Origin: Schmidtea polychroa
Lineage: Eukaryota
Length of the DNA stretch: 64,000 nucleotides
Assembly: GCA_044892525.1 (NCBI GenBank)
Contig: CM097885.1
Span: forward strand, 37,758,001 to 37,822,000
Direction: 5' to 3'
Positions 2,952 to 62,992 of this stretch are shown here, one piece after another. A program made the translations under genes and the position numbers. The notes under the pieces were generated by a model, which saw nothing but the letters and a program-made list of their open reading frames with translations, did not search any database and was not told where the DNA came from. The stretch's first letter is position 1; every line of letters starts with the position of its first letter.

Positions 2952-3415
2952 TGATATTTTTTGTTGTTAATACATCATTTATTAATCCAATAAAATGGAA
3001 AAGAATAAAATAAAAATATTTATTAATTGCAAAAATCGTAATGTGTAGAATAAAAGAAGTGGAGGAAAATTTATTTAAAAATGTATTTTGAAATAGAAAA
3101 TCTTATCAGAAGAGTTGTGTAAAGAGACTGATGTAATGACTGATTAATAAAGAAGGATTATTATTTGATTCAAGGAAACGCATTAAGTACTTTGTAAACG
3201 TCACCTTTCATGCTCAACTATTTCCGTTAATTGATGAACGATTGCTAATAGGAATGGGCAAATTTTAGCTCTTGCAAATGTTAATAATGACGACGATAAG
3301 ACTGTTTCATAGGTAACATACGGTATGGGAATTTAATATAAATTTTTTACAAATAGTTACAGAAATAATATTAGTTTTGACAAATAGATTTGCAGAATCG
3401 ATATGAATTGTGACA

Positions 3416-3417
<2 letters not shown>

Positions 3418-3509
<92 letters not shown>
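3418..3509. repeat. (AAT)n microsatellite, ~30 units
   Basis: Direct reading; explains the poly-Tyr ORF 3371..3553. Confidence 0.97.
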
Positions 3510-3511
<2 letters not shown>

Positions 3512-3909
3512 CAAATTAGAAAATAACAATATTAAATTATAAGAAAGCACCACTTAAATATTAGTTTTACAATATATTTCGGTAGTTTTCCTGTCGTCAT
3601 CAGGTAGAATAGAATAACTAGATAAATTAGAGATTTTTGAATTTTTTTTTAGAGATTTTTTTATTAATTATATAATTTTTTAATAAAAAAATATTTTTTA
3701 AATTATAAAAATTATAATTTAAATAATAAATTTTTTTTAATTTGTAGAAAAAATATGGAGATTTTAAAATATTGAAATTTAAAATTTATTTAACGGGAAC
3801 TTTTTAACAATCCAATAAAATCAAGAGGGATGGAAGAAAAACATTTTATTCATAGTAATTGAAATCTTTAAATTTGCAATTTAGAAAACATTAATGAAAT
3901 TTATAATTT

Positions 3910-12880: not shown

Positions 12881-13289
12881 CATTGTGATTACATTAAGCG
12901 GCGTCCTCAATTTATATATTTTTTATCAATACCTTAATCATTTAATGACCGAAGTAAAAATATTGAAGACAATTTTTCTATTTATTTAATGGCCAAGTTT
13001 TTTTTTAATTTAAGGGCCACAGTAATAACATTCATCACCTAATAATATTTTAATTAAGACCATGTAAAATTTAAGTCCAGACTTAGTATAATTATGACCA
13101 CAGTAATAGCCTCCCTTTAAAAATTACGAAAAAAAATTTGGGCACATAAAAATTCTTCTATAGAATCAAATTCTGAGTTAAATTCAAAGGCTGAAGAATA
13201 TGAGGTGTGATCTCTAGCTGAATTCATAATATGACAGTTAATATTTTCAAATTTAAAGTTTTATATATTAAATAGCCTATTTAAAGAAA

Positions 13290-13530
13290 TTTTCGTGTTT
13301 AGTAATTAATGAAAAAAATTTTCGCGTTTACTAATTAATGAAATTTTTTTTCGTAATTTTAAATAATGTAAAAATTTTCGCGTTTACTAATTTATGCAAT
13401 TTTTTTTCGTAATTTTAAATAATGTATAAAATTTTCGCATTTACTAATTTATGCAATTTCTTTCGTAATTTTAAATAATACATTTTTTTTCGCAATTTTT
13501 AAATAATGCTTATCTTTTTTCGTAATTTTT
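13290..13530. repeat. AT-rich tandem repeat, ~55-bp degenerate units
   Basis: Repeats of aaattttcgcgtttactaatt(a/t)atg and cgtaattttaaataatg. Confidence 0.8.
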
Positions 13531-14069: not shown

Positions 14070-14572
14070 GTCAACCCATTTGCGGAGTGTGAAGCCATCA
14101 ATCTTGAAGAGGAGCTTGAGGAAAACCTGACTGATTTGAAAAATGATTTGGTTTTCAAAAGAATCTTTGTAGAAAAGAGCTGTCTGAGCTCTGGATATCT
14201 TTAAACAACAAATTTCCACGATTGAGCAGCAATGCAATAGAATTATTGTTGCCATTTGGAAGCTTTGTCTTTGCGAGCAGGGCTTTTCGACACTCACAAA
14301 AATAAAGTCAAAAAAGCGTGAGAGACTACAAATGATCCATAAAGAAATGCGTGTTTGTCTTTCGAAAATGGAGCTTCGCATCAACCATATTTGCGCAAAA
14401 AAGCAATCTCAAATTTCGCATTGAACAAAAATAAAATTTAATTGTATTCGATTCATTACTTGTAATTAAAAATTTATTCTAAGATTTTTAACTGTTGATG
14501 TTTTATATAGGGGTGTCTCGAGAAAAAAAATGGCTTAGGGTGCCGCGATGCGAAAAAGGTTACCCAACACTG
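14070..14572 (+). mobile_element. 3' part of Buster/Charlie-type hAT transposon
   Basis: Frames FYVNPFAECE...WISLNNKFPRLSSNAIELLLPFGS/LCEQGFSTLTKIKSKKRERL...KKQSQISH*; ends ggttacccaacactg followed by tactatat. Confidence 0.8.
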
Positions 14573-15571: not shown

Positions 15572-15723
15572 AGTTAAATCCATCTTTAGATCCATCTTTA
15601 AATTTGCAGCAAAAATCTCGAAACTAACAATATATATTTAATCAAAGAATTTCTAAATAACAAGTTTTAATTAATTCGCAAAACCGCCAATTCCAAATTA
15701 TTTAAACAAACAGATATCTAACT
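15572..15723 (-). repeat. 3' LTR (AGTTA...TAACT)
   Basis: Identical to 20124-20275. Confidence 0.95.
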
Positions 15724-15734
15724 CTCCCCTTCTT
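15724..15734 (-). promoter_or_regulatory. Polypurine tract AAGAAGGGGAG
   Basis: Abuts the 3' LTR and overlaps the pol stop codon. Confidence 0.9.
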
Positions 15735-18700
15735 AAGAATTTTTCCACTTCTTCAGCCACTCGATTCTTCTTTCTTTCGTTCCTTCTTGTGAATGTAGTT
15801 CGACTCGATGAGGTGATAGAAATCTGGCGATTTTATATGGGCCATCGTATTGCATACCATCCTTGTGCCTGTTCTGCGGCTCTTTACGTACGAGTACCTC
15901 CTCCCCCACCTCGAAGACACGAGTGCCCCTCTTTGTCTTATCCATAGCTCTCATAGTGTCTGCGGCTTTACTCGAATTAAATCTCGCGTCTTCGATTCTT
16001 TCGCTTCTTGATATCTCGGCTTGTTTCAGGTTAGAGTGTAGGTTAACACTCCGTCCATAGATTATCTCAAATGGTGATAAACCTGTAGCACTTTGTCGAC
16101 TGCTATTTATAGTGAACTCTATTCTGGGTAGAAGTTCGTGCCAGTTTCTCTCTTCACATCCGCCTGCCAATGTTGCTGTAATAAGATCTCTTATCGTTCG
16201 TATGGCTCTTTCGGCTAAACCATTTGATTGGTGCTGATAAGGTGAGCTGAATTCCTGTTTGATTCCAAGTTTCTGTAGCTTCTGTCTTAGGAAATTCCCT
16301 TCGAAATTTCGGCCTCTATCTGTTAAAATGCTCTTCGGTTTTCCAAATCGATAGATCCAACTATTAAGTATTGTTTTGAAAATGGTCCCTTCGTCTTGCT
16401 TTGTGATTGCAGTTAAAGAAATCAGTTTGCTAAAACGGTCCACCATTACTACCATATATTTTTTCATGGCGTTTATTTCCATGTAAGCCACATCTAAAAC
16501 AATCTGTTCTAGGAATTCAGAGCTATATCTAGGAATAAATGTTTCCTTGGTTCTTGTCTGATCGATCTTTCTCTTAGCGCAGATCTCGCAACATCGTAAA
16601 CAGAGTTGGATTGTTTCTTGCATTTTCGGCCAATAAAATATCTTTTCCATATAATGAAATAATTTCTTAACTCCAATGTGACATAGTTCTTCATGTAGTG
16701 TTGTTGTTAACAGGCCTGCAAATGTTTCTGGGACTAACATTAAGATATTTTTGTTCTTTTCTACTGTTATTAATCCTCCATCAATTCGTGTATTTTTTAC
16801 GTTAAAAGGAAAACAATTCTTTTTCTCCCGTGTACATCCATTTTCCAATATCTCTCGCAGCTCTTGAAACCGAATGTCCTTTTGTTGTTGTTCCCATACT
16901 TTTTCCATAGCTTCTGTTCTTTGGATAGTATATATATATCTAATCTTTGATTTTCCTTGCTTAGCTTCTTCATGTCTTGTTTGACACTGGGTGCAAATCA
17001 TACTTTTTAATCTTGATAGTCCATCTGCATTCGAGTGTTCTTCTCCTTTCCGATATTTTAGTTCAAAATCATATTCCGACAGGTTAGCTAACCATGTTTG
17101 GAACTGCGGACTGATTGGCGTTTTTGTAGTGTTCATGAAAACCAATGCCTTGTGGTCGGTGCGAATTATGAATTTTTTTCCGTACAGATATTCTCTAAAA
17201 TGCATGACGTATTCATGTACGGCGAGCAGTTCTTTCCTGGTTACACAGTATCCCTTTTCATGTGATGACATATGTCTCGAGCCATAAGCTATGACAGATT
17301 CTTCTCCATCTTCTGTAATTTGACTCAAAACTGCACCAATGGCTCCAAAACTAGCGTCTGTGTCTAAGATAAAAGTCCTATCTTCTCTTGGAAAATCAAG
17401 GATAGGTGCTTCGCACAACCGTCTCTTCAGAGTTTGGAAGCTCTCATTGCATTCTTTAGTCCAATTTATATCTTTATCGCATCCAGATGTTGCAGCGTAT
17501 AATGGTTCGGCGATTTTGGCATAGTCTTTGATGAATCTTCTATAGTAGTTCGTTAATCCGAGAAACGATCTCAATTGTTTTGAACATTTTGGTACTTCTG
17601 CTTTCTCGATCTCTTCCACTTTCTTCCTGTTTGTCTGGATACCCTTCTCGTTAATTGTGTGACCAAGGAAACACAATTCTGTTTTATTGAATTTGCATTT
17701 TTCTGGATTTATCTTCAGTCCTGCCACTTGAATTCTTCTGAATATTTCCCTTAATAGCTCATCGTGGTCTTTTTGACTTTTACCATATACCAAGATATCA
17801 TCTAGATAAACTACTACTCCCTTGAATAGCATTCCTTCTAGCACTGTGTGCATCAGTCTCTGGAATGTCGCAGGAGCTGTTGCTAAGCCAAATGGTAGTC
17901 TATGGAAGCAAAATTGTCCTTCTCTTGTACTGAATGCAGTCATCTCTTGAATTTCTGGAGCTAACTCCACTTGATAATACGCCTGACCTAAATCGATTGA
18001 CGAAAATATTTTTGCATTCGCGAGACAGTCTAGTAAGAATTTGCTGTTAGGCATCGGAAATGACTCTTTTTCTGTTATGGAATTTAATCCACGATAATCT
18101 ACACACATCCTGATAGATCCATCTTTCTTCCCTACTATCACTAACGGGGCATTCCAAGGACTCTTGCAACACCGAATAACATTTGCTTTCATTAACTCTT
18201 TTATCAGTTCTTCAATCTTTTTCTCCATGTGCATTGGTTGACGTCGAGGATGTTGCATTATTGGGCCTCCTGTTATCCGCATCTCATGTCGAACTAAGTT
18301 TGTAAATCCCAGATCGAATTTCGATGCCATAAAAATTCCGCCGAATTCCCTGATCATTCCTTCAATATCTTTATTATTCTCACCTGCCATCGCCACTAGT
18401 GCTTTATTTATTCTTTCTTCATCAGTGTAAATTTTATTTATCAATGACGTTTCTATATTATTGATTTTCATTAACTTTACTCCAAACTCTTTCATTGTAT
18501 CAATGCCCCCTATGAATTCGGGTTTGATCTCTTTTACCACTACTACTGTGATCATTTTGGTCTTCTGATTCCACGTGGCCGGTATAGTCATGTATCCCAT
18601 TGCTTCTTCACCTCCAGTTGAAAAAACTCCGCACAATAATATCATACAACGTTTAAGTTCTGGTTTGCCTATTTTCTCCCACAAATTCTTGCTCATAACT

Positions 18701-18792
18701 GTTACTGATGCTCCAGAATCCCATAACATCTCTGTTTCGGCATTATTCAACATTATTTTACTCCAATTTCTTCCATCTTTCGTCTGGTACAT
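15733..18792 (-). CDS. pol: Pol polyprotein (aspartic protease, RT, RNase H, integrase); frame open upstream into gag end
   Basis: LWDSGAS protease; RMCVDYRGLN, LPFGL, VYLDD RT; LDTDAS...ELLA RNase H; H-H-C-C zinc motif, LDVA, TDRG, ERAI integrase; Ty3 domain order. Confidence 0.97.
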   Translation of the reverse strand: MYQTKDGRNWSKIMLNNAETEMLWDSGASVTVMSKNLWEKIGKPELKRCMILLCGVFSTGGEEAMGYMTIPATWNQKTKMITVVVVKEIKPEFIGGIDTMKEFGVKLMKINNIETSLINKIYTDEERINKALVAMAGENNKDIEGMIREFGGIFMASKFDLGFTNLVRHEMRITGGPIMQHPRRQPMHMEKKIEELIKELMKANVIRCCKSPWNAPLVIVGKKDGSIRMCVDYRGLNSITEKESFPMPNSKFLLDCLANAKIFSSIDLGQAYYQVELAPEIQEMTAFSTREGQFCFHRLPFGLATAPATFQRLMHTVLEGMLFKGVVVYLDDILVYGKSQKDHDELLREIFRRIQVAGLKINPEKCKFNKTELCFLGHTINEKGIQTNRKKVEEIEKAEVPKCSKQLRSFLGLTNYYRRFIKDYAKIAEPLYAATSGCDKDINWTKECNESFQTLKRRLCEAPILDFPREDRTFILDTDASFGAIGAVLSQITEDGEESVIAYGSRHMSSHEKGYCVTRKELLAVHEYVMHFREYLYGKKFIIRTDHKALVFMNTTKTPISPQFQTWLANLSEYDFELKYRKGEEHSNADGLSRLKSMICTQCQTRHEEAKQGKSKIRYIYTIQRTEAMEKVWEQQQKDIRFQELREILENGCTREKKNCFPFNVKNTRIDGGLITVEKNKNILMLVPETFAGLLTTTLHEELCHIGVKKLFHYMEKIFYWPKMQETIQLCLRCCEICAKRKIDQTRTKETFIPRYSSEFLEQIVLDVAYMEINAMKKYMVVMVDRFSKLISLTAITKQDEGTIFKTILNSWIYRFGKPKSILTDRGRNFEGNFLRQKLQKLGIKQEFSSPYQHQSNGLAERAIRTIRDLITATLAGGCEERNWHELLPRIEFTINSSRQSATGLSPFEIIYGRSVNLHSNLKQAEISRSERIEDARFNSSKAADTMRAMDKTKRGTRVFEVGEEVLVRKEPQNRHKDGMQYDGPYKIARFLSPHRVELHSQEGTKERRIEWLKKWKNS

Positions 18793-18839
18793 CTCTTCTT
18801 CTGCCTCGTCTCTTCGTTGTTCATTTCCTATTTCACAAT

Positions 18840-20147
18840 TTATTGTCTTGACTCCACCGACGAAATGAAACCCATGGAGTCGCTGATGTTTTTTCCGTCT
18901 TCTCTCAATATAGTATATTTCTCAGGGACATTGTATCTATCTTCCATATTGCTGTGATCCATTCTGAAATCCTGGCTGTTCTCGGTGTAATCTCTTGTTT
19001 CAGATTTTGAATCTTCTTCTTCTATGCACGCTATTCTTTGATATCGTTGTGGAACATCTTTCCGTAACGAAAAACAATCTCGGAACCCGTGTCCTTCCTT
19101 GCCACATATCAGACATTTATTTCCCAGTGGACACTCATACCTTCTATGTCCCCTTTCGCCACAGCAAAAACAATCACCTACCGTTAATTTTGGGACCGAT
19201 GCTTGTGGTAGTCCCCTACTTTCATTGTACAGCCTCCTTGCAATATTCTTCATGGATATTGTTGGCAGCTTCCTTTCTGAGCTATTCGGGATTCTCGCAT
19301 TTCTCAAGAATTGTTGTCTTGGAGATTGTTCTCGACGACCATGGTTATTTCCTTCGTATTGTATTGGTCCGCGTATAGGATGTTCGTCTCTTCTTGATCT
19401 GTGGTGACTAAATTGGTCCTCTGGTAGTCTTCTTTGTGATGATGTATGCATGGGATCTTGGGTATTCTTTTGAATTCTCATCTTCCCTCCCTCAGTCACG
19501 CTAGCGTATGTTCTTTGACCGATTGCTTTAATAAATTCTGTTTTATGGTTTCCATTTTTGTTACTTTCAAAAATTTTCGCCAATGATCTCGTTTCTTCAA
19601 TTTTTGTTTCTGGTTTCGTCAATAGTATCTCTCTCAGTCTCGCATCGCGTGCTTTATTTGCGATGAGATCTTGAACAATATCTTCTTCTGATCGTCCTGA
19701 ATTTATAACTTCAGCTAAAGCTTTCCTTAGCCGTATTTCAAAAGCTGCAAACCTTTCATCATCTTCCTGTTCCATAGCTGCCAATTCTCTGATTTTGTCA
19801 GTTATTGATTTTGTAATTGTGAACGTATTTAAGAACCACGCTTTGGCTTTTACATCTGTTGTTTCTGTTTCTCTGACGTTTCCCCACAATGTCTTTGCTT
19901 CTGCCACTAATAACACATCGAAAGTGCTTGTCAATCGCTGTCCATTTGTCAGCAACCATTCTTCTATATCCCTGATCCATTCTTCGGCTTCTTTTAAACC
20001 TCGTCCATCATATCGTCTGATGTTCAATGTGAGCATGTCTTGGCATGATTTCCGTAGGCATTCCATTAGCGATTTTGTCGATTTTGAAATGGCGTTGATA
20101 TTTTGATTTTCGGCGTGGTCGCCAGTTAAATCCATCTTTAGATCCAT
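18840..20147 (-). CDS. gag: Gag with two CCHC zinc knuckles
   Basis: 435 aa; CFCCGERGHRRYEC and CLICGKEGHGFRDC; RYDG...AEEWI capsid-type motif. Confidence 0.93.
   Translation of the reverse strand: MDLKMDLTGDHAENQNINAISKSTKSLMECLRKSCQDMLTLNIRRYDGRGLKEAEEWIRDIEEWLLTNGQRLTSTFDVLLVAEAKTLWGNVRETETTDVKAKAWFLNTFTITKSITDKIRELAAMEQEDDERFAAFEIRLRKALAEVINSGRSEEDIVQDLIANKARDARLREILLTKPETKIEETRSLAKIFESNKNGNHKTEFIKAIGQRTYASVTEGGKMRIQKNTQDPMHTSSQRRLPEDQFSHHRSRRDEHPIRGPIQYEGNNHGRREQSPRQQFLRNARIPNSSERKLPTISMKNIARRLYNESRGLPQASVPKLTVGDCFCCGERGHRRYECPLGNKCLICGKEGHGFRDCFSLRKDVPQRYQRIACIEEEDSKSETRDYTENSQDFRMDHSNMEDRYNVPEKYTILREDGKNISDSMGFISSVESRQ
20114..20124 (-). promoter_or_regulatory. Primer-binding site TGGCGACCACG (probably tRNA-Arg)
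   Basis: Directly at the 5' LTR end; complementary to a tRNA 3' end ...CGTGGTCG-CCA; tRNA identity is inference. Confidence 0.85.
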
Positions 20148-20275
20148 CTTTAAATTTGCAGCAAAAATCTCGAAACTAACAATATATATTTAATCAAAGA
20201 ATTTCTAAATAACAAGTTTTAATTAATTCGCAAAACCGCCAATTCCAAATTATTTAAACAAACAGATATCTAACT
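20124..20275 (-). repeat. 5' LTR (AGTTA...TAACT)
   Basis: Identical to 15572-15723. Confidence 0.95.
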
Positions 20276-20660
20276 ATTATATATATAAATTCAAATTTCT
20301 TCAAAAATAAAAAAATTTAATGTAACATCTACTTACACAATAGAAAATGTAAAGATAATAAAATTAATTTAATGACTTGGGTGAGCTTGCTTTTTAACAC
20401 ATAATTTGACGATATTTGAAGAAATTTATGTTAATTGTAGACGCATGACATTTTCTGCATCAAGTTTGTTTCTGTATTTTGTCTTCGTAGCAATGTAAAG
20501 AGAGAATAATCTCACGCAAAGATATGTTGTTGCGAAAGGCATTAATACTTTTACGGCTCGTTCGGAAATTTTCGGATATTCATTCAATAATTGAATCCAA
20601 AATGTAACAATTTCAACCTGGCGAATTGTAGTTTCTCATGTTGTGTCTGTAGATATGTGT

Positions 20661-20856
20661 CTCCAATCTCTTATTTTATAGTAAAAAGACCTTAAATTTT
20701 TACACTTTTAACTCATTTAGAGCCTTTATTTTGAACACAAATACCCATATGTTTTCTGCTTTAAACCCTATAAACATAAAGAAAATAGGAGAAGAGATGG
20801 AAATTCACAAACTCCAGGTAGGGTTGCGTGCATGTGGGTCTTATATCCACTACTTA
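20661..20856. repeat. Left TIR (outer ~49 bp missing)
   Basis: Reverse complement of 30641-30836 with 4 mismatches in 196 bp; weaker similarity continues inward to ~20910. Confidence 0.93.
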
Positions 20857-21407
20857 TAGCAAATCGCCAAGTTGGCAAATTGCTAACTAAAATTATAAAT
20901 ATTTTATAAATCTTAATCTTGATGTCTTGAAGAATAAAAAATTTTATGAAATAGTAAAACTGCTCTGAGAGGACAGTGGTATTTTTTTTTTTTTTTTTTT
21001 TTCACTGTCCTCTCAACAGTTTTTTTGATCCGGATCATTTTTTTATTCAACCTCTTTCGTTTATCGAATCTCTTCCAATATACAAGCTGGCCAGACTCAT
21101 ACATCAGAATCAATTCGATCTCGAAAGTACAAATGAATTCGAAAGCGAATCCGAAAGAGGTCCGAAAACAACTGAGAAAGGGATCGATCCGGGTGTGTTC
21201 GAAAGACTGGTGGCGATAATTACCGGTTCACCATCACACCCGTTTCAATAATTTTTTTTTCATATTTATGTTTAAAAATTAATTAATTAATAAAATAAAA
21301 TAAATAAAATAAAATAAATAAAATAAAATATACAACTACTTTATAAATCTAAGATACCCACACCATTTTCAATATTATTTTCAAATTTTTATTATTATTT
21401 TATGTTG

Positions 21408-21488
21408 AAAAAAAACTAACCTCAGATGTGATTTGAACCGCTATCTATTTGAACCACTGTGCCAGTCTAGCCCACTGCGCTATCAGGC
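21408..21488 (-). ncRNA. Candidate tRNA-like RNA polymerase III transcription unit
   Basis: A-box TAGCGCAGTGG at +7, B-box-like GGTTCAAATC (partly duplicated), T8 run downstream; not a canonical cloverleaf. Confidence 0.4.
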
Positions 21489-21518
21489 TTTGGATTTTTA
21501 TTTATAAAATTCTAAAAA

Positions 21519-21740
21519 TTAAATAATCGATTCAAGTTCTTTAACTCTTTCCTGTAATTGTTTCATTTTCTTTAACCTTATCTCAGCAACTTCTACAGCT
21601 TTCATGTAAAAATGTCGATACTTTTCATTCTCTACCATCAACTCTTTGATGTATTCTAATGGTTCTTCTTCTCTTCTTTTCATTCTCTTATGTTTAACTT
21701 CATTCAATTCATTTCTCATTCTTTCAATTAAGTCAGTCAT
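21519..21740 (-). CDS. Small coiled-coil protein, unknown function (73 aa)
   Basis: TATAAAATG start context shared with other element ORFs; charged, helical composition. Confidence 0.6.
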   Translation of the reverse strand: MTDLIERMRNELNEVKHKRMKRREEEPLEYIKELMVENEKYRHFYMKAVEVAEIRLKKMKQLQERVKELESII

Positions 21741-21787
21741 TTTATAAATATTTTTTTTATTGGATATATTAATTTTAATATATAAAA

Positions 21788-23079
21788 ATGAATAATATAA
21801 ATCTCAAAATTCAAGAAAAAAATAAATTAAATCTTGATTATAATAAAGAATTTACTCATGAAATTAAAAAAATGATATTTTAAAAATCTCCCCAACTTCA
21901 GGATCTATTGCAAACTTAAATCGTAGGGGTGATATAGTTTTTCAATCTCTTCAAACATCAAACCCTATAGATATTTGTAATGCCAAATTATATTATAAAA
22001 TTGAATTAGAAATTGAAGCAAACAAAGATATAACCCTAGAAAATAATTTCTTTCCAAATTTATTCTCCAACATGAGATTAAAACTAGGATCATCAGAAAT
22101 TGAAACTGTTTTACATCCAGGAGTATATTCTACAATGTTAAATTTTATTTTAACTGGTTGTGATTATAAAAATGAATATGGTGAATTAACAGGCTGGATT
22201 CCTGACACTAATAAAGGGGATTTAGATAAAGATGGTTTAGATATAAATTATGGTTACCATAAAAGAGCTGAACTTTATAAATCTAAAAAATTTGAAGGTT
22301 ATTTTGAATTAAAACACTTATTTGGATTCCTTCAAAATTATAACCGTGTACTTCATAATGTTTTTATAGAATTCATCTGTAATAGACTAGAAGGTGATAA
22401 AAGATTGTTCTATGGAGCTGCAGATACAAAAGCTAAATTAAAATTATCAACACTTGAATTGCATATACCTGAATGGACATTAAACCCACATTCTGAAATC
22501 AAACTCCTTGAAAGATTAAATTCCAACAAGTCTATAAATGTAAATTATTTAAATAGAATCTGTAGTGAATTTAGTATGACAGAGGGTTCAACATATTCCA
22601 TAAAGGTAGCAAATTTAGCATACCGACCAAGATATATCTTGATTGGATTCAAAGAAGTAGATTCATCTTTCCAAAAAAAAACCAACTTGTTTATTCAAAA
22701 GATTGGAGATGATAATTTAAAAACAATCCAAATTCAATTAAATAGTTTTTATTATCCAATAAATAGAATGGAATTTAATATTGAAAATAATGAAAACATA
22801 TTCCCATATCTAAATTATATTGAAACATGTTATGATTTCAAAGTTGAACCACAATTAAGTTTAGAAGATTTCAAAAATTTATATTCTATATTTTGTATAA
22901 ATGTTTCAGACCAAGATGATCGCCTAGCCATAAATAATGTTGATGTTACACTTCATGTAACAAAGGATTCTAATTTTAAAACTAAAGTATATACATTAAC
23001 ATTAGAAGAAAAGAAAATAGAAATGAAATTATATGGTGGAAAGATTTCAATTATTGAAAATGTTAGGGGAGATTCTTAA
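21788..23079 (+). CDS. Major capsid protein (double jelly-roll), ~430 aa after correcting a 1-nt deletion in the A7 run at 21866-21872
   Basis: Motifs NNFFPNLFS, LKHLFGF, RPRYILIGF, LNSFYYP and DFKNLYSIFCINVSDQDDRL match my recollection of Polinton/adintovirus MCPs. The upstream frame (KISPTSGSIANLNRRGDIVF...) is continuous with ORF 22072. Confidence 0.82.
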
Positions 23080-23096
23080 TATTTTAACATTTTAAA

Positions 23097-23918
23097 ATGT
23101 CTTTAAATAAATATTGGAGATGCGAAACTTGTAATTGTCAAGTTACAAGACATCATAAAGCAAGTCATCTAAAAACTAAAAAACATACGAGAGTTGATAT
23201 TACAGGAGTCGATATTCCACGAGCTGGAGCCGACTTGCAATCTTCAAAAACAACATCTTCAATATTAAAACCTTTTACTACAGAAAAATATCCAGGTGAA
23301 AGACATTTATTTAAACACAACTATACCGGACCAGGAACAAGATTAGATATTAGATTAGATGAAACTAATAATCCTAAACAAGGATAAGAACCAATAAATA
23401 GAATTGATCAAGCAGCTTTAAAACATGATATTGCTTACAACTCAGAAGATCTTAGAGATAGACATGTGAATTTAATACATGATTTAAATAATATCCAAAA
23501 TCCATCAACACAAGAAAAGATTCAAAGAGCTCTAGTTAAATTAGCAATGAAAGGTAAGATTTTCATAGGCTTAGGACTTGGGCACCCCTTCCCTAGAATA
23601 GCAAAAGATGTTGCTAATAAAAAGATTATTGAACAAGCAGAGATTGAATCCAAGACTGATTCTTTTAATAGCTTATTAACCCCAACAGAATCACAAATAA
23701 AATATGCCAACGAATTACACCATGAATTTAGAAAAAATAAAAAATATTTAAAAGTTCAAGTACATGAAAAAGATCAAACATGGTCTGCAGATTTAGTCTT
23801 TATGCCAACCAAATCATCAGACCCTGAAAAATATAAAATAATTTTAACAGTAATAGATTTATATACACGATTTGCTTTTTTTCCGAGTATTGGTACCAGA
23901 TGGTGCTCAGAAGAATAA
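23097..23918 (+). pseudogene. Single frame: zinc finger + parvovirus-type PLA2 + N-terminal part of retroviral-type integrase; one internal TAA (23385-87); integrase truncated ~23885
   Basis: CETCNC...HLKTKKH; NYTGPGT...NRIDQAALKHDIAY (PLA2 Ca loop and HD catalytic motif); ANELHHEFRK...WSADLVFM...YKIILTVIDLYTRFAF (Polinton integrase first Asp). ORFs 23097 and 23466 are in the same frame. Confidence 0.85.
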
Positions 23919-23942
23919 AGTCTTATTTTTTTAATTATTAAA

Positions 23943-24539
23943 ATGGAAGAAGTAAGAGAAGAAAAAATTTATCCAGAATTGTCATCAAGATATTATTCCG
24001 AAGGTCACAAAGGTTCCAAGGCCTCGGCTCCCACAGAACTTGAAATTATGAGAGTAAAAGAATTTAAATCAGAAACCTTACATTTACAAGATTTATTAAA
24101 GCATTATAAAAAAATTAAAAATAGATGGAATAAAGGGAATACAGTTTTTAAAGTTGTAGGTTATTCTTTAGGATTTACATCTGCAATATTAACAGTTATT
24201 TTACCCATAACTTTACCGGTTGTTACTCTTGCGCCTGTAATACTTGGAAGTATTTCTGTAGCTGATGGTTTCTTAACTGAAATAGTTTCATTATCTTATA
24301 CTTCTAAAAAGAAAAGTTTATATAGAGAAGTTTGTTTATCAGTAGAATTAGGAATATCAAAATTATTTTTATTTCAATTAAGGGCTTTGGAAGATGGAAT
24401 CCTAACTGATGAAGAAATAATGAAATCAAATCAAATAATACAAGATATTAAAAATGAGGTTATAAGATTAAAAAGTGCTAATGTTATAAGTAATGAATAT
24501 TCTAAAAAAATTAAACGAGAAAAATGGCTGAAAGACTAA
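23943..24539 (+). CDS. Membrane-associated Polinton/adintovirus protein (gasderminoid-like), 198 aa
   Basis: N-terminal IYPEL, central hydrophobic hairpin (VVGYSLGF...VILGSISV) and ALEDGILTDEE motif typical of this family as I recall it. Confidence 0.6.
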   Translation: MEEVREEKIYPELSSRYYSEGHKGSKASAPTELEIMRVKEFKSETLHLQDLLKHYKKIKNRWNKGNTVFKVVGYSLGFTSAILTVILPITLPVVTLAPVILGSISVADGFLTEIVSLSYTSKKKSLYREVCLSVELGISKLFLFQLRALEDGILTDEEIMKSNQIIQDIKNEVIRLKSANVISNEYSKKIKREKWLKD

Positions 24540-24555
24540 TTTATAAATATAAAAA

Positions 24556-25104
24556 ATGGATGCATTTTTAAAAAAAGTAGATCAAGTTGCTATAGTTGAT
24601 ACTTCTAAATTAAATATGTTTTTATTAAAAGAAAAAGCTTTAGAGTTTACAAAGATTTTAAGTGAGAATCCTAATCTTACTCAATCTCAAATTTGTAAAA
24701 TGTTGGGTACTTCGGATTCTACAATGAGAAGAATAAGAAATGATTTAGGAATGTGTTCTCCTTTTAGACATGCTGTTAAAAGTAAAAAATCTAAAAAGAA
24801 AGGGGTCGTTGATAAGATTCCAAACATCCTAGCAGGAAGGGGTGAGGGAAAATCCTTTTATTGTACAGATTGTTCAAAAGTTTTTAAATCTAGTAAATCT
24901 TCTCAAAGTCATGTTTGTAAGGGGAGTTCCTCCAAGGCTCTTAAATCAAAAGATACTTTAGGATCCGGAGCTTCGCCTAGTATCTTTGATAATAAAAATC
25001 TTAAATGGAAAGAAAAGGAAGAAGAAGAAGAAGAATTTGAAGGTCATTCTGAAGATGAGGAAGAAATAAGCAAAAAACAATTAAAGAATATTCTTGCAAG
25101 ATAA
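24556..25104 (+). CDS. HTH + C2H2-like zinc finger protein with acidic tail (182 aa)
   Basis: NLTQSQICKMLGTSDSTMRRIRNDLGM (HTH-like); YCTDCSKVFKSSKSSQSHVC. Confidence 0.7.
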   Translation: MDAFLKKVDQVAIVDTSKLNMFLLKEKALEFTKILSENPNLTQSQICKMLGTSDSTMRRIRNDLGMCSPFRHAVKSKKSKKKGVVDKIPNILAGRGEGKSFYCTDCSKVFKSSKSSQSHVCKGSSSKALKSKDTLGSGASPSIFDNKNLKWKEKEEEEEEFEGHSEDEEEISKKQLKNILAR

Positions 25105-25132
25105 ATAAAATTTTTAAATTTTTAAGTATAAA

Positions 25133-25513
25133 ATGGATTACGATTCAATCATTGCAACAATTAATGAAGAACCTGAAATACAAAAAGAATGTGTAAAGCT
25201 TTTGACAGAATTTAATAAACAAAGTATGGGAACTCAAATTGATTATGGTAGACAAGCTATAGTGTATCGTGCAGGACAAGAAGAAATATTAAAGCGTTTG
25301 ATGAATAGTGCTATTGATCTTCGTCTGGAAAATAAAGCAATAAAGGAAGAGAATGAATATCTATTCCAAAGTGCTAATTTAGTTGATAAAAGTTTTATAG
25401 AATCTATGCATGGAAAACACTGCTTATTGAATAGTTCTAATGCTGCTCGGAATGAAGAAATGATGAAGGAAATAGAGGAAATATTACGTAGACCAATACA
25501 TAAAATAGAATGA
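25133..25513 (+). CDS. Unknown helical/coiled-coil protein (126 aa)
   Basis: TATAAAATG start, co-oriented with the cluster. Confidence 0.6.
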   Translation: MDYDSIIATINEEPEIQKECVKLLTEFNKQSMGTQIDYGRQAIVYRAGQEEILKRLMNSAIDLRLENKAIKEENEYLFQSANLVDKSFIESMHGKHCLLNSSNAARNEEMMKEIEEILRRPIHKIE

Positions 25514-25676
25514 AGGATAAAATAAATAATATTATAATAAAACATGTTATCTTATAATATATTTCTTGTATTTTAATTTCTTTATCTTTAATTATTTCAT
25601 CAACAAGATCATATAATTTTTTAGTTTTTTCTACAAGTTCCTTGGCTTTTGAATATCTTAAATTAATTGTCGACAT
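25437..25676 (-). CDS. Small protein with C-terminal transmembrane segment (79 aa)
   Basis: TATAAAATG start; charged N-half then CFIIILFILSFILFYVLVYVIF; overlaps the convergent ORF end. Confidence 0.45.
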   Translation of the reverse strand: MSTINLRYSKAKELVEKTKKLYDLVDEIIKDKEIKIQEIYYKITCFIIILFILSFILFYVLVYVIFPLFPSSFLHSEQH

Positions 25677-25764
25677 TTTATATATTTAAAAATCAAATAT
25701 CGCTGGATTCAATCATGACTGAAAATCACTGAAATAAATGAGTAATGCAAGAAACTTATATTCT

Positions 25765-28700
25765 TCAAGTATTGATTCTACTTAATTGAATTTTATTATA
25801 ATTAAATTCTTCATCAGTTAGACCTTCAGAATTGAACCCCTCAGTGTTGAAACATTTTTTCTCTATACATATTGAATTTTTAACTTGACAATATAAAGGT
25901 TTGTTATCAAGGTAATCGAATTGTGGTTCATAACATAGCTCTTCAGAATATATAATCTCAACATTATAAATATCAAGATCAGTAATCTTTAAGTTATAAA
26001 GTTCATTTATTTTTTCAAGATTTTTTATTATAGGGATTAAATCATTTCCAATTGGGAGAGTTTTTTTAAAATCACTTAGAATAAATCTTTTATCATCATA
26101 ATTTGATAGTGATATCTTTGCTGCTTCTTGTTGATACATATTATGCTTCTTAGATTTAAGTTGATGTACCTCTTCTATTTTATCTTGATGGTTTTCTTTT
26201 AGTGCATCTTTATAATCTTGGTGTGTGATTTTCTTAGATACTGATTTTTGTATACCTTTACATTTGTTATCGTTAAAGGTTTTTGTATCTGTCATTATTG
26301 GTCGTTCAAATGTATAATCTATTTCTTCCATTTCATTTGTTGTTGGATTTTTATACATAATTTTAATTGTTTGCTTTTCTGTTTTCGGCTTTTCTGTCAC
26401 TTCAAGTGAATATTGTTTAGGTCTAATAAATACTCCATCTAATATTGGGGTATTTGGTTTTTCATCTTTGAATGTGAATAATTCTCCAGATGAATTTATT
26501 AGTTTAGAAAGTATAGGATTTTCAGCTATTTCTTTTTTCACATCTTCACCATATATTTTAAAAAAGAAACTATCTGTATCCATTGCATGTAAGGATATTC
26601 TATCTCCAAAGTGTGGTACTAGAATATCATAATAGGCCTCATACATTTGTAGTTTAGAAAGTTCTAAAATAGTGAAGCCCATAAAGATTGGTTTATTATA
26701 AGTTTTTTCATTATTTTTATTTCAATTGCTACAAGGTTCTTTGAGAACACTTCTGCATTTTTAAATGTTGGTTTCCCAAGCATTCTATTATACCTTGCAA
26801 AGTCCTTTTGAGTATTTGTTAATAACTCTACTCGTGTGTATTTGTCCACGTTTTCCATTGTCTTTCCGAAGACTGCATTATTTAAAAGTTTGTATATCAC
26901 ATCAAGATAGATATTTCCAGCTCTTTTTGCTTCGTTTCGTTTCTTAATATTTCCTTCTATAAACTTTTTCATAAATGGTGCTTGTCTGAATTTTATAATA
27001 GAATGAATCTTCTTCAAACGCATTCCATGTGAAAGATAAAATTGAAAGAGTCTATAATGACAAAGATAATATTCTCTATCAGTTTGATCACATAAAAGTT
27101 TTATATTTGTTGCTATATGTTTTAAGATTTGCCAAGCTGAAAGTTCACTGATATTAATCTTTCTTTTTATAGGAGCAAGGGGGAGAAATCTAGTTCTAGA
27201 TTTTATTCTATCAGGGTACTCGAGATCACATTCTATAGCATATTCAACCTCTGAATCTTTAGGGGTTAATAGGATTTCTTTTATAAGATCATCTAGTTTT
27301 TCTTTTTCTTTAGGAATATTTACCCATGTGAAGTTTCCAATTGGTAAATATTCAGTCATTTTACCCCCATATAGAGCAGTTGCATCAGGATAAAATATTT
27401 CACATGGATCAGATAAACCTTCTGTTATTAATTTAGAGTCTTCTGGAGTTTTTATTTGTATATAGTCCGCATCTGTATCTTTAAAGAATTTTCTATAAAG
27501 AGTTAAGGAATTATTTGCAGTTATTTCTCTATCTCCCATTACAGAGGAAATACCTCCTCTAATATTATGTTTAAATATATTAAACATATCAAGATCGGTT
27601 AATAATTCTATAACTTTATCCCTATCCCTATCCCTATCCCTATCCTCTTCTTCAATCCATATATTATATAACATTATATCCCAAGCTAGAGCTGGCAGTG
27701 TTATATAATTATAAGGTTTTAATTCAAAGGCTTTACAAAAGGTTTCAAAGCAGTCTGCTAAAATATAAACATCAAGGGATAAATACATGTCGGTATATTC
27801 CCCAAGATTTTTACACTTGAATAATTCCCACATTTTATTTGCTCGAGAATATTCTTGATCTGTAATATTTGATTGTTGTAGTTTTGAAAAGAATGCTTCT
27901 TTCTCTGGTAATTTTGTTTCATTATATTTATCAAATGAATTCATGTAATCGTAGGGGTAGATTCCTTTTGCTAAACATGTTGGATATTCTTCTGGAGGAA
28001 TATTATATTTTATCAAAACATGCTCTGTTGTATATTTAAAATCTTCTGGTTTCATTGTTTTTGCTACTGCATCTAGAGACATTTGAAGAAAGTTTAGAGA
28101 ATCTATAAATTTTAAACAACCATATTGTACACATTTATATTTTTCTTTTGTTAAGCCGATAACCTTGAAAGAGTTTTTAGCATTTACTGCTAGAGCCTTT
28201 ATAAATAAATGTAAATCATATCCAAAAAGATTATGAAATATAACTGGTATAAATTTAGGAGTATGACAATTAAGATTACAATTTTTATGGGCTGCTCCTC
28301 GATAATTATTTTCACTTTTAAAATGATCATGATCAGGGACTTTTTTATTTGGAGATTGCTCTTGAGTTTGTAGTGCTTCATGAAGCATTCTTTGTTCTTC
28401 TTCTTCAATAATCTCAAGGAATTGGTTCATAGGGAGTGAAGTATCAGGGGTCGCGAAGCTCCCGGAGGTTGGATTCCCAGAGGTTGGATTCCCAGAGGTC
28501 GCGAAGCTCCCAGAGGTTGGATTCCCAAAGAGTTGATTCCCAAATGGTTGTTTACACATCCAACAATTTGAAGCATTTTTATATTCTCTCCATTGTTCAT
28601 TTGAAAATTTTATTTTATAATCTGTTTTTAATATTTTAAATAATTCATGTTCTAAATCATTTACACTTTTAACAAAATGATCTGAAACATCTTCTGAAGA

Positions 28701-30547
28701 AGTTCCTCTATATGAATATTCTTTAGATTCTATGAGTTCTGGGTAATTACTTTTAAAAAATAGTTTATAAGCTGATGGTATTTGTTTAGCAGTTCTTATT
28801 GTATAAGATTTTCTATTTTCCCATAGAAAGTTTTTCATAGTCTGCCATGTTGATACCTTTTGGGAATAATTATACCAAGAATCTAATAAATTATTTTTTT
28901 CTATTATTTTTAAATATTCTTTTTCTAAATCATGTTCTATATTTACTGCTTCAAAGTCACCATATATTACTCCCAATGATTCTAATAAATTTGAATAATT
29001 TTTAAAGTTCATGTCTGTGTTTGTAGGCATTTTAATTAAAGCTGGTTGGTTTTTCTCACATAATCTTTCATGTTTAATTATAGAGTTTTTTGTTGTAGAA
29101 TAATGAAGACATCTTTTACATGTTATACCCCCTCTAGCTAATGTTTTTGTGCGCATAAAACTTTGAAAGTTTTTTATTAAAATATAATGTTGATTCCTTT
29201 CTAGGTTTTCTAGGTTCTGCTCGTCCTCTCCTTCATCACCCTTTCCAACGGACACTCCATACCCTTCCTCTTCATCTAACCCTGACTCAAATAGTCCTGG
29301 ATCTTCTTCATCTTCTTGTTGAAGATTTAAATCTTGCTCATTTTCATCTTCATCTTCATTATAAACATAACCTTGATTAAACTCTCTTTGATCAACATTA
29401 TTAAATTCTTCTAATATTAAAAGATCTATTTCTCTATTTTTATCTTGTTCAAATAGTATTTTATTTGAAATATAAATTGGAATAATATGTTTTAAATCAT
29501 CTTTATCTGGGGCATATTCATAAATATTAAGTTTAATATTATTTAAAATTTCAAATGCTGGAATGTCTTCAATTTTCATTGGATGTTTAAATCCTTTTGG
29601 ATATATTAATTCGTTTTCATATTGTTTATATTTAGAAACCCTTTGGGGATTCTTTGCTTGAGGATGTAGTTGAGCAAGTATTGACCATTGAAAACATTTG
29701 TTATCACTATTCTGTACATTTATAACATAGTTGGAGTCAAATGGTGTACGGATAAAAGATTTGGGATTTGGGGGTGCTGCTCTCCAATATTCAATTTCCA
29801 TAGATTGGAAAGAATGAAATCTTAAATTTGATTCTCCTAATTCTTGTTCTACTTGTTCTTGTTGTTCTTCCATCTCTTTACATAAATCTTTATTGGTTTT
29901 ATTTATTCCTTTTGCTGAGAATAAATATTTAAAAGATGTTTCAACACTAGAATCTAAGGGGGTTGTGTCTGCTTCTTCTCCTCTCCAATATTTTGTAGAG
30001 ATTTTTACATTTTTTATTTTATAATGTTGAATCTTGATCGACCAAAAATTCTTATAGCATCATCCATTGAATTTTTTATGTTTTGTTTATTTTCTCTTAT
30101 ATACTCTGAGATTGTGGAGGAAAACATTTGTTCTCCAAATACATCTATGTGATGGAAGTTATCCCAATTATATTTTTCTTTTTCAATATGTTCAGGTTCT
30201 TCTTCAGAATCTTCTTCTTCACAATCAGAATCTCTTTTAGGTATTGGTTGGTTGTTCTTTATAGCACATTTTTTTACATGTTTTAAATAATAAGATTTTA
30301 TATTAAATTTTGATTTACATATAGAACATTCAAATTTTTCTCTATTTTTAGGAACTCCAATACAACTTTCAAAATGTTTATCATATCCTGAAAGTAGATA
30401 TCTAACTTTACATTTGGTACAAATTTTTGAGTTTGAATTATCAAGTCTATTTGTTTTTAATAAATGAGCTTTTGATTTTTGATGAGATAATAGAGCAGTT
30501 CTATTTTTAAAATTTTTTTGACAAACATCGCAATTATAAATATTCAT
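25765..30547 (-). CDS. Protein-primed DNA polymerase B (~1590 aa) with N-terminal zinc fingers, split by two 1-nt frameshifts (~30045 and A5 at 26714-18)
   Basis: ExoI YGDFE, ExoII FHNLFGYD, ExoIII YLSLDV; motif A DATALYG, B KLLNNAVFGK, C MDTDS; Endonuclease VII-like CWMC...DHDH...GAAHKNCN; INVQNSDNKCFQWSILAQLHP. Joins ORFs 30014..30547, 26664..29873 and 25765..26682. Confidence 0.92.
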
Positions 30548-30640
30548 TTTTTAAAAAAATTTTTTTATTGGATACTATGTTTTCATATTTATAAAATATT
30601 TATATTTACCAACTTGGCAGCTTGCCAATCGGTACTTTGC

Positions 30641-30885
30641 TAAGTAGTGGATATAAGACCCACATGCACGCAACCCCACATGGAGATTGTGAATTTCCAT
30701 CTCTTCTCCTATTTTCTTTATGTTTATAGGGTTTAAAGCAGAAAACATATGGGTATTTGTGTTCAAAATAAAGGCTCTAAGTGAGTTAAAAGTGTAAAAA
30801 TTTAAGGTCTTTTTACTATAAAATAAGAGATTGGAGGCCACTTTTCCAGAGGGGTTGTGTGCATGTGGGTCTTACATCCACTACT
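30641..30885. repeat. Right TIR (complete, ends CCACTACT); contains its own 35-bp inverted ends
   Basis: 30643-30677 and 30851-30885 are reverse complements with 2 mismatches. Confidence 0.93.
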
Positions 30886-31357
30886 GTCTGTAGATATGTG
30901 TCTATCAGCTGCTCTCTTTCTTTAATTGATAATGTCTCTGCATTACTAGATTCAACAAACGGACTTTGCACCCAACTAAAAATGTATGTTTTAGGAGGAA
31001 AATATTCCAAAAATAATTTTGTAATCCAGATAAATGTTCCAAAATATGCTTTTTCGCATTTTGGTCGAGTATGGACTTTTAAAGTGGAAGTTAAAGTGGA
31101 TAGTATTGGGTAGCATAATAGTGGGATATTGATAACAGTGTGAGTCAATGACAATCAGGGTTGAAAACAGTGGAAACGAATAACGTATTTTTAGATCTAT
31201 GCTATTTTGTCTCTTAGACCAAGGTTATTAGTATGCTCCTATCAAATATATGAAAAGCCTATGAACTTGTTACTGCTTTATGAAGCGAAAATAAAAATTG
31301 AGATCATGTTCACTTCTACTGAGATTGTTGTTGGACATTATAGTTTAAATACTATAT

Positions 31358-32343
31358 CAACGGTGGGCAAATGCGGCTCTTAGAGCCGCATGCGGCTCTT
31401 CGTTGAGTAAACTGCGGCTCATTGATAATTGAATTCTTGATAATCGAATTCGATTTTTTATTTTGAAATTTTTCACTAAATGTTTTGAGAAAAAATTTGC
31501 AAACATTAAATTTGGCTTTACAAGGAAAAGAAAAGATAATTATTGATTTGTCACAAACGTTATTTAGTTTTGAAGCTAAACTTCGGCTTTTTGTGAACGA
31601 TCTTAGGTCGAAAATATTTAATCATTTTCCACGAATAAAAGCTAATATAATTGATATTACAGAAGAAAAAGTAAACGAATACAGTGAAAAATTGGAAGAA
31701 TTTTAAATGTAGGTTTGAAGATTTGAAAAGTTATAAATCTACATTTGCATTTTTTGTGAACCCATTTATTTGTGATATTATTGAAGATGGATTTCCAATT
31801 TCTGAAGTAATACTTGTTAAAAAAGCGGTTGGGGAATTGGAGTTATTAGATATGAAAGAGGACCAGGCTTTGCAAATGCACCATAAATCTACTTCTATAG
31901 TTGAATTTTGGAAACTCGTACCAGAGGCAAAATATCCACACTTAAAACAAGCTGCTTGCCGTCTAATTTCAATTTTTAGTACAACATATTGTTGTGAATC
32001 TTTGTACTCCACAATGAAGTTCGTAAAGTCGAAATATCGTTCACAGTTGACCAATCAGCATCTTACAGAATTGCTGCGAACAGCTTTAACAAAGTATACA
32101 CCAAATTTCAAAGATTTGACCAAAAGTCTTCGTTAATTCAAGAAATTTTATTACTTTTTATTAATGGATTTTTATGTTTGTTACTTAATGTTTGAAATAA
32201 TTATTTTGTTTTTTTTTAATAGCGTTTAAGTCTCTTTAATCAAATTAATGAAATAAAAAAAATATGTACTTTACTATGGTGGCTCTGTAAAAAATAAATT
32301 TTCGGAAAATGGCTCTTATTGAACCCATGCGTGCCCACCCTTG
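31358..32343 (+). mobile_element. Internally deleted hAT element (GTF2IRD2/SPIN-like), 986 bp, TSD TACTATAT
   Basis: TIRs caacggtgggca / tgcccacccttg; identical 8-bp flanks (31350-57, 32344-51); ORFs 31485..32136 encode the hAT C-terminus (FWKLVPEAKYPHLK...STTYCCESLYSTMKFVKSKYRSQLT). Confidence 0.9.
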
Positions 32344-34525: not shown

Positions 34526-45292
<10,767 letters not shown>

Positions 45293-45434: not shown

Positions 45435-46165
45435 TGTGATAGTGAAGAAAGCAGATGGATCTATAAGGATGTGCATGGACTACAGAAGATTAAATCCCAT
45501 TACGGAAAAAGAATCAGTTCCAACGCCAGATAGATGAACATTATTAGATTGTATTGCTAATTCAAAATATTTTTCGTCCATAAACTTAAGAAAAGTACAT
45601 TATCAGATTTGCTTTAATAGACTTCCGTTCGGATTAGCTACAGTACTGACTTCTTTTTAAAGATTGACTAATATTATGCTGGAAGGTTTAATATTCAAAG
45701 GAGTGGTTATCTACCCCAATGATATTTTGGTTTATGAAAAAACCCAGTAGGAGCATGATAACATTTTAGAGGAAGCTTTTAAATGAATTCAACAGACAGG
45801 ACTGAAAATAAATCTAGGAAAATGCCATACCTATAAAATCGAATTAGTATTTTTATTACACCTAACTAATGAAATTATATAAGAACGAATTCAGAAAAGA
45901 TTGAAGAAATCGAATTTGTGCCAGTCCTGAAATTCGCAAAGCAAGTAAGATCATTTTTATGATTGACCAATTACTACAGAAGATTTATTAAAGATTGCGC
46001 AACAATTGCGGCGCCTTTGTATGCAATAACAAGTTGGAAGAAAAAGGTTATAGGAACAAAAGAATGCAAAGAAAGATTTGAAATATTAAAAAAAAATAAT
46101 GTGAAGCACCAATATTAGATTTCCCTCAAGGAAACAGATGTTCATTTTGGATAAGAAAGCTAGTT
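45435..46165 (+). pseudogene. Degenerate Gypsy RT/RNase H fragment of the same family as the 15.6-20.3 kb element
   Basis: IVKKADGSIRMCMDYR, LPFGLAT, GLIFKGVVIYPND, LTNYYRRFIKD, CEAPILDFP with many stops. Confidence 0.85.
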
Positions 46166-47699: not shown

Positions 47700-48296
47700 A
47701 TTTGTTTTGCAATTTAAAACCTGTTTTTGAAGATCACCTATCACAGCTTATAAAATAGTTCAAAAAATACTTTCAACCAAACAATATCAGCAAGATCGAT
47801 CCGAACTTCTTTGGAAGAAGAAGAAAATCTTATAAGTTGCCTTGCGACATTTCACCGAGGACAAAATTTGGAGGTATGGAACTTACTAATTTTTGGATAT
47901 TAGTAAAAGATGAATATCCGCTGCTAAGTAATAAAGCTCAACAAACCTTAATTCTGGGTTTTCACGGTCACTGTAATAATGAATATATGTTGTAAAGAAA
48001 ATTAAGATGGAACATGAAATTAGGGTACCTGCATTCGGTTTGATTTCGAGATTTGAGAAGTTGCGTAACATAACAAACTTATCCATCCCACTAATTATTT
48101 TAATTATAAGTCTGTTTAACAGACTTTGTTCAATAAATTGTTTGTGAATTATAAATGCGTGTTTCATTTATTATTATATATTTAAACTAACCTAATCACA
48201 TCATCTGCGTACTTCAATTGCGTTAGATAGACCAATGTTTCGACTTAGGGTACTGCGAAAAAATTCTGATATATTAAAGTGGTTTAGAAACCACTG
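47700..48296 (+). mobile_element. 3' part of Buster-type hAT
   Basis: FWILVKDEYPLLSNKAQQTL; end ggtttagaaaccactg. Confidence 0.7.
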
Positions 48297-62966: not shown

Positions 62967-62992
62967 TCAGTAGAAAGTAGCGAAATGAAGAC

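Follow-up and report, generated by a model that had tools for sequence, protein, structure and literature searches.

We examined a 64,000-nt stretch of the Schmidtea polychroa genome (GenBank assembly GCA_044892525.1, contig CM097885.1, positions 37,758,001 to 37,822,000 of the forward strand; hereafter the window, in whose coordinates all positions are given), which contains a 10,223-bp element at 20663-30885 that derives from a Maverick/Polinton of the adintovirus type. A sequence-only reading had placed a compact endogenous adintovirus/Polinton-like virus (PLV) between these boundaries, which the arms of the terminal inverted repeats (TIRs) and a flanking duplication bear out. The element carries pPolB, TIRs, and the 5' part of an RVE integrase whose catalytic core is mostly deleted, the three features by which Maverick/Polinton origin is recognized (PMC11296320), together with a double jelly-roll (DJR) capsid gene. 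Its core open reading frames (ORFs) are interrupted in the capsid, PLA2-integrase, and pPolB genes. The features that bear on its identity and history are as follows.

20426-20643 (-): hAT transposase relic, dimerization domain, the downstream half of the target (PF05699, E 1e-6)
20644-20662 (no strand): left copy of the target-site duplication (TSD), an exact 19-bp direct repeat
20661-20911 (+): left TIR, truncated, without the outer ~49 bp that include the AGTAGT terminus
21788-23079 (+): DJR major capsid protein gene, frameshifted near 21866-21872 (PF21738, structure model, relatives)
23097-23879 (+): zinc finger-PLA2-integrase fusion, 5' part only, with a stop at 23385-23387, three PLA2-motif residues missing, and the integrase cut off
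23880-23942 (+): deletion junction segment, 63 bp, without a match to residues 256-463 of P0028, the closest relative of the fusion gene
25765-26721 (-): pPolB C-terminal piece with the PolC (DTDS) motif; homologues cross the break at ~26700
26664-30059 (-): pPolB core piece, with the end of the terminal-protein region, a vOTU Cys motif, Exo I-III, Pol A, and Pol B
30014-30547 (-): C2H2 zinc-finger ORF, abutting the pPolB core
30587-30885 (-): right TIR, complete, with 49 bp beyond the left-matched part, ending in AGTAGT
30885-30903 (no strand): right copy of the TSD, an exact 19-bp direct repeat
30904-31154 (-): upstream half of the target, in degraded frames, from a six-frame reading of both flanks and without Pfam support of its own

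The gene proposed to encode a DJR major capsid protein does so. Its frame at 21868-23079 matches PF21738 (E 2e-23), and the structure predicted for the capsid (pLDDT 82, pTM 0.85) matches the folds of the mavirus, iridovirus (SGIV), and PBCV-1 major capsid proteins at E ~1e-12, along with many viral DJR proteins. Whether 21788-23079 folds as a DJR had been set beforehand as a test of the sequence-only reading; the test was run, and the DJR fold was found. Only the single ORF claimed for this interval did not stand. Among 27 matches, an intact 431-aa relative (P0001) is 97% identical to the element's capsid, and its residues 1-28 map to the frame that starts at 21788, whereas residues 28-430 map to another frame; the capsid gene is therefore broken near 21866-21872. 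Thirteen residues differ between the window and P0001, with the odd residue in the window at 9 positions, in P0001 at 3, and undecided at 1, a skew that is suggestive of decay in the window copy. In a tree built by a quick method from the 22 of the 27 matches that are at least 380 aa long, all of them unnamed relatives, the end branches of the window copy and P0001 measure 0.027 and 0.006.

Directly downstream, 23097-23918 forms one frame with an internal stop at 23385-23387, and it encodes, in order, a C2H2-like zinc finger, a PLA2 domain (PF08398, E 1e-7), and the start of an RVE integrase that is cut after the first catalytic Asp. The PLA2 domain was correctly recognized in the sequence-only reading, although PLA2 is not a gene of its own here, being encoded in one interrupted gene with the integrase. 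We identified 18 longer relatives of this fusion gene: PF00665 is present in all 18 and PF08398 also in 17, which indicates that the PLA2-integrase fusion is natural in the lineage, and an N-terminal zinc finger is present in 7. This search selected long proteins, so these counts give no measure of how frequent the fusion is among Mavericks. The second-Asp motif of PLA2 is kept in 18/18 relatives and is missing in the element, where three residues have been lost.

The closest relative, P0028, is an intact protein of 463 aa with 84% identity to the element. Its residues 1-255 align to 23103-23879, and residues 256-463, among them the second Asp and Glu motifs of the integrase (residues 286 and 321), fall past the break and match nothing anywhere in the window. 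Because the alignment ends at residue 255 of 463 with the remainder unmatched, both the partial integrase, which ends at 23879, and the internal deletion, previously placed at ~23885 and now at ~23880, are confirmed. The 63-bp junction segment shares no 6-mer with any of the 197 proteins retrieved, has no second copy in the window that would be informative, and gave just a chance-level match in Pfam; probably it consists of the 3' terminus of a gene now lost, followed by intergenic DNA. What lies past the break is not integrase, so the deletion extends into other sequence.

An ATPase, a cysteine protease, and a penton had been reported missing, and on every count they are. Genes fill 8669 of the 10,223 bp, the end regions take up 856 and 338 bp, and the largest gap elsewhere is 140 bp, which leaves no coding space for them. 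Neither Walker A nor adenain motifs occur in the six frames of the element, and no spare frame matched the Pfam families of ATPase, protease, or penton (0 of 47 scanned, from 55 listed pieces). Most likely, we infer, the three genes lay in the deleted block. Their absence is the reason that we file the element as a defective relic and not as an intact virus, and its shortness is due to partial deletion and not to a new compact virus.

On the opposite strand, the claimed pPolB was recovered, albeit from a broken gene. The match to PF03175 (E 1e-7) lies above the cut-off, and the Exo I-III and Pol A-C motifs are all present, in a domain order taken from PMC11161782. The break at ~26700 falls between motifs B and C, and homologues run through it. 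A vOTU Cys motif at nt 29705 is common to 73 of 114 long homologues. Homology already begins at nt ~30011, ahead of the first ATG (29873), which is the sole start of nine without an AAAATG context; this part aligns to positions 100-231 (E 2e-27) of an N-terminal profile built from 73 of 150 homologues. Against the same profile, the abutting zinc-finger ORF (30014-30547) aligns in colinear order to positions 5-94 and ranks second of 1351 window pieces (E 0.19). This suggests that the ORF is probably the pPolB N-terminus behind a further break near 30014-30030. The pPolB gene is split into two pieces at least, probably into three. Among the 150 matches listed, the best representatives are ~32-42% identical to the element, and one 452-aa protein is 49% identical. 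A GC-rich tandem duplication at 28426-28530 lies inside pPolB and encodes short low-complexity peptides repeated in frame.

The TIR arms at 20661-20911 and 30587-30836 are 92% identical over a 253-bp alignment, with 4 mismatches between left and right in the outer 196 bp. The (AGT)2 or (AG)3 terminal motif is present at the right end and absent from the left; AGTAGT is the terminus most often seen in Mavericks (PMC8097293). At the right TIR, the outer 243 bp (30643-30885) form a self-palindrome with 34-35-bp stems at 30643-30677 and 30851-30885, and its predicted fold (z -8.6) was not equaled in stability by any of 100 shuffles. The exact 19-bp repeat that flanks the element has just two occurrences in the window, whereas in a control of 375 random pairs of 41 bp no match was longer than 12 bp. 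The repeat shares two bases with the left TIR and one with the right end, which puts the length of the duplication at 16-19 bp, compared with 6 bp for intact vertebrate Mavericks (PMC8097293) and 5-8 bp for Mavericks/Polintons in general (PMC10748475).

Outside the duplication, the left flank encodes the hAT dimerization domain, and the frames of the right flank run, in a six-frame reading, into the same duplicated sequence; the element was therefore inserted into a hAT relic. We read the degraded frames at 30904-31154, which we take to be Buster-like, as the preceding part of the relic at 20426-20643. Target-primed reverse transcription was rejected as the source of the long duplication, given that there is no poly(A), that genes lie on both strands, and that one TIR end is intact. 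We likewise rejected the TIRs as two independent insertions of miniature inverted-repeat transposable elements: beyond the inner edge of the 243-bp unit, the inverted similarity goes on for another ~55 bp, and the target duplication lies on either side of the entire element.

Taken as a whole, the locus is very probably a defective, decayed Maverick copy that was inserted by one-ended integration and internally deleted. The parent element, inferred to be ~13-14 kb long, would have replicated by protein-primed pPolB synthesis from AGTAGT-ended TIRs, packaged its genome with capsid, penton, ATPase, and protease, and integrated by means of an RVE integrase fused behind a zinc finger and PLA2. A copy would then have entered an old hAT relic by one-ended integration, with the integrase joining the intact right end and host repair attaching the left end, from which ~49 bp had been trimmed, 16-18 bp away at a microhomology of 2 bp, which would have produced the long duplication. 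The deletion removed the last 45% of the integrase gene, in all likelihood with the morphogenesis genes, and point lesions would have built up afterwards.

This mechanism resembles the one-ended integrations described for ASLV and HIV-1, in which one end is joined by integrase and the other is repaired by the host, giving a normal end, a truncated end at short homology, and a longer duplication (PMC5041404). The long duplication at this locus fits one-ended integration. Retroviruses are another virus class, and their one-ended integrations usually carry much longer duplications, so the likeness is an analogy of mechanism and not of membership.

Several observations weigh against this account. 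The 9:3 skew in the capsid is not significant alone (one-sided binomial p ~0.07), and no pPolB representative above ~42% identity over a long match was found in a library of 1.84 billion representatives, so that the polymerase is divergent relative to that library. The relatives are known as proteins only, which leaves the parent's ATPase, protease, and penton genes, and their position, putative. Aberrant HIV integration typically produces duplications of at least hundreds of bp (PMC5041404), longer than the one here. Finally, the frameshifts fall within A-rich runs, where assembly error is a possible cause; a homopolymer control found 0 breaks at 12 runs in two Ty3 elements of the window, against 2-3 breaks at 34 runs in the element, a weak comparison. 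Four lesions are of another type than sequencing errors, namely the internal stop, the loss of three PLA2 residues, the large deletion, and the trimming of the left TIR.

The alternative that survives best, albeit an improbable one, places the deletion before the insertion: a shortened genome of a helper-dependent subfamily, as the sequence-only reading had entertained, would have been replicated, packaged, and integrated by a full-length helper and would have decayed later. By analogy, a weak or trans-acting integrase could have produced the aberrant left junction, the divergence between the TIRs is low (4/196 sites), and non-autonomous Polintons of 11-15 kb without morphogenesis genes have been catalogued (Table S1, PMC4028283). 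Catalogued elements without ATPase and protease, however, mostly lack the capsid gene too (PMC4028283), whereas here a broken capsid gene is kept. Only one copy was seen, its junction is without a second copy in the window, and the small lesions elsewhere represent post-insertion decay that could explain the deletion as well. Its polymerase, capsid, PLA2, and integrase are broken and one origin is gone, together with the left AGTAGT terminus, so that no virus function is left and the element does not readily serve as a satellite either; judging from its sequence, it has lost the capacity for replication, particle formation, and integration. A helper-dependent derivative is unlikely.

Far less probable is a naturally compact lineage that never had ATPase, protease, or penton, in which the integrase alone was cut in this copy. 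An ATPase and a protease are identifiable in just 83% and 74%, respectively, of 72 Polintons (PMC4028283), no remnant of the three genes was seen, and the element's pPolB is divergent. Three points speak for the deleted copy instead: the deletion reaches sequence that is not integrase, the gene that follows it (23943-24539) also starts six residues short of its relatives, and a conserved DJR capsid together with PLA2 implies particles, hence a penton and a packaging ATPase, both of which DJR-capsid particles need. Nor did the proposal of a compact lineage with very divergent proteins find support, as intact relatives were found at 97% identity for the capsid, 84% for the integrase, and 92% for a putative membrane ORF; divergence describes pPolB alone (~32-42%). 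Least credible of all is an assembly artefact, in which a mis-joined repeat created the deletion, the left truncation, and the 19-bp duplication, since the difficulty of assembling multi-copy elements with palindromic ends and the presence of three N gaps in the window are outweighed by the absence of any N within or near the element, by flanks that are two halves of one hAT relic, and by an adjacent Ty3 element assembled with identical long terminal repeats (LTRs), a 5-bp TSD, and open frames.

As a decayed, internally deleted copy, the element can be compared with described systems. It shares with Mavericks/Polintons (PMC8097293, PMC4028283) pPolB, an RVE integrase, a DJR capsid gene, an (AGT)2 TIR end, decay, and two gene modules on opposite strands that point inward; it differs from them in its length of 10.2 kb, in lacking ATPase, protease, and penton, in an integrase that is truncated and PLA2-fused, in its duplication of 16-19 bp versus 6 bp, and in its truncated left TIR. 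PLVs mostly lack pPolB and RVE integrase (PMC11161782), and because both are present here, PLV is the wrong group; of the double label in the sequence-only reading, endogenous adintovirus/Maverick is the half that applies. Based on gene content, the nearest group is probably the Alpha adintoviruses, or group 2 Maverick-Polintons, in which PLA2 is common (bioRxiv 10.64898/2026.06.19.733378). Like Alpha adintoviruses of the Mayetiola type (PMC8502044), the element has an OTU-PF03175 polymerase, as seen in its PF03175 match and the vOTU Cys motif, and a parvovirus-like PLA2 domain. Unlike them, it has PLA2 preceding integrase in one frame instead of a separate PLA2X gene, and it has no adenain, FtsK, or penton.

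The database relatives P0001, P0028, and P0196/P0197 belong to the same or a sister family and are intact, unlike the element's copies, and motif searches in the supplements of two papers did not find the element. A palindrome at the TIR extremity beside the TSD is also a feature of endogenous virophages and PLVs of Halocafeteria (bioRxiv 10.64898/2026.07.28.741278); those palindromes are 52 nt long and mostly belong to elements without pPolB, whereas here 34-35-bp stems enclose ~175 bp in a pPolB element.

The locus adds a further decayed Maverick to those on record, and decay is the state in which these elements are most often found; most vertebrate Mavericks are degraded fossils (PMC8097293). 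Some of its features would carry further if they proved family-wide. The fusion of PLA2 to integrase would then point to a way in which a Maverick integrase could enter the nucleus together with the incoming genome, and an integrase travelling in the particle, if true, would amount to retrovirus-like delivery in a DJR DNA virus. A putative RNA polymerase III (Pol III) unit in the left arm, described below, would bear, in a relative of adenoviruses, on the origin of virus-associated (VA) RNAs. The junction, if our reading of it is true, would be a natural one-ended integration by a Maverick integrase. Neither a PLA2-integrase fusion nor any Pol III RNA was found described for Mavericks in the literature searched, which left subscription papers, Repbase reports, and some supplements outside its scope. 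A bolder proposal joins these features into an undescribed Maverick lineage with a PLA2-fused integrase inside the particle, a VA-RNA-like Pol III transcript, and palindromic ends; the present copy would then represent a defective-interfering genome of that lineage, integrated in trans through one of its ends. On the sequence evidence, the fusion itself is present, and the proposal as a whole is possible and rather unlikely.

The remaining features of the element are listed here.

20956-21024 (+): strong hairpin around a poly-T loop, immediately inward of the left TIR (z -7.0, 0/200 shuffles as stable)
21408-21489 (-): Pol III type-2-like unit, with an A box at 21482-21472, a 32-nt spacer, a B box at 21439-21430, and T8 at 21415-21408
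21519-21740 (-): orphan ORF, 73 aa, charged, helical, no significant Pfam or PHROG match
23943-24539 (+): 198-aa helical protein with a hydrophobic hairpin at residues ~68-117, from hydropathy and relatives
24556-25104 (+): helix-turn-helix (HTH) and C2H2 zinc-finger protein, 182 aa, acidic tail (HTH_24, E 6e-4; zf-C2H2_jaz, E 2e-3)
25133-25513 (+): orphan ORF, 126 aa, no significant Pfam or PHROG match
25437-25676 (-): orphan ORF, 79 aa, with a hydrophobic stretch, overlapping the 126-aa ORF, weak matches only

The protein encoded at 23943-24539 is putatively membrane-associated, based on its hydrophobic hairpin. Its relatives P0196 and P0197 are 92% and 90% identical and start six residues earlier, and a protein-atlas search returned clusters without names. 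It had been labelled gasderminoid-like. A PDB sequence search returned 8 matches and no gasdermin, and a model from a three-sequence alignment was unusable (pLDDT 44, no significant Foldseek match); the label thus finds no support in either search, both of which are weak tests. GasderminX has been described for Beta modules and PLA2 for Alpha modules (PMC8502044). The claimed HTH-zinc finger protein was recovered, with both domain matches below the curated cut-offs, and the three orphans, of 73, 79, and 126 aa, stay without a significant match.

In the non-coding left arm, the hairpin at 20956-21024 has miRNA-like Rfam scores, all sub-threshold, and Rfam found nothing at gathering score over the whole element. 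The Pol III-like unit was first spotted by eye, and the box search that followed was post hoc, with a general consensus for the two boxes; in that search it is the sole A and B box pair in the 64 kb, and none of 1500 Markov resamples of the element holds one. The unit has 49% GC next to sequence of 11% GC. ARAGORN found no genes in it, Rfam made no call there, and its fold is not more stable than those of shuffled sequences. Either a small-RNA gene of the virus or the remnant of a tRNA could account for it. The related MELD viruses have been reported to contain predicted tRNA genes.

The surrounding window is AT-rich (20-42% GC per kb) and crowded with transposon relics. The element is adjoined by an apparently intact and very young Ty3/gypsy LTR retrotransposon at 15572-20275 (-), which has 152-bp LTRs that are 100% identical, AGT..ACT ends, a 5-bp TSD, a 435-aa gag frame that starts within the 5' LTR (ATG at 20147), and, overlapping gag, a pol frame of 1062 aa. 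A second, related Ty3 at 61677-64000 (+), with ~70% DNA similarity and open gag and pol frames, leaves the window, and a further Ty3 fragment lies at 45436-45605. Additional hAT transposase relics occur at 31675-32136 (+) and 38410-39630 (+), both matching PF05699, and with weaker matches at 14177-14367 (+) and 47861-47953 (+).

Flatworm assemblies are rich in Polintons, with 748 pPolB1 loci reported in 8 of 73 genomes. A distant Maverick-type pPolB relic lies in three frames at 59025-60882 (-; PF03175, E 9e-14), with no TIRs and no other genes recognized around it. We considered this relic as a helper or sister copy of the element and rejected it, as it is 22-49% identical to the element's pPolB and is itself broken.

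A probable host exon at 44831-45292 (-) encodes an EF-hand-like segment, for which the protein atlas gave EF-hand look-alikes with scores of at most 0.9. Simple repeats in the window include a 56-bp minisatellite at 13285-13519, an exact 63-bp tandem duplication at 34950-35075, and long TAT and AAT microsatellites at 2853-2960 and 3401-3517, which lie in inverted orientation ~460 bp apart.

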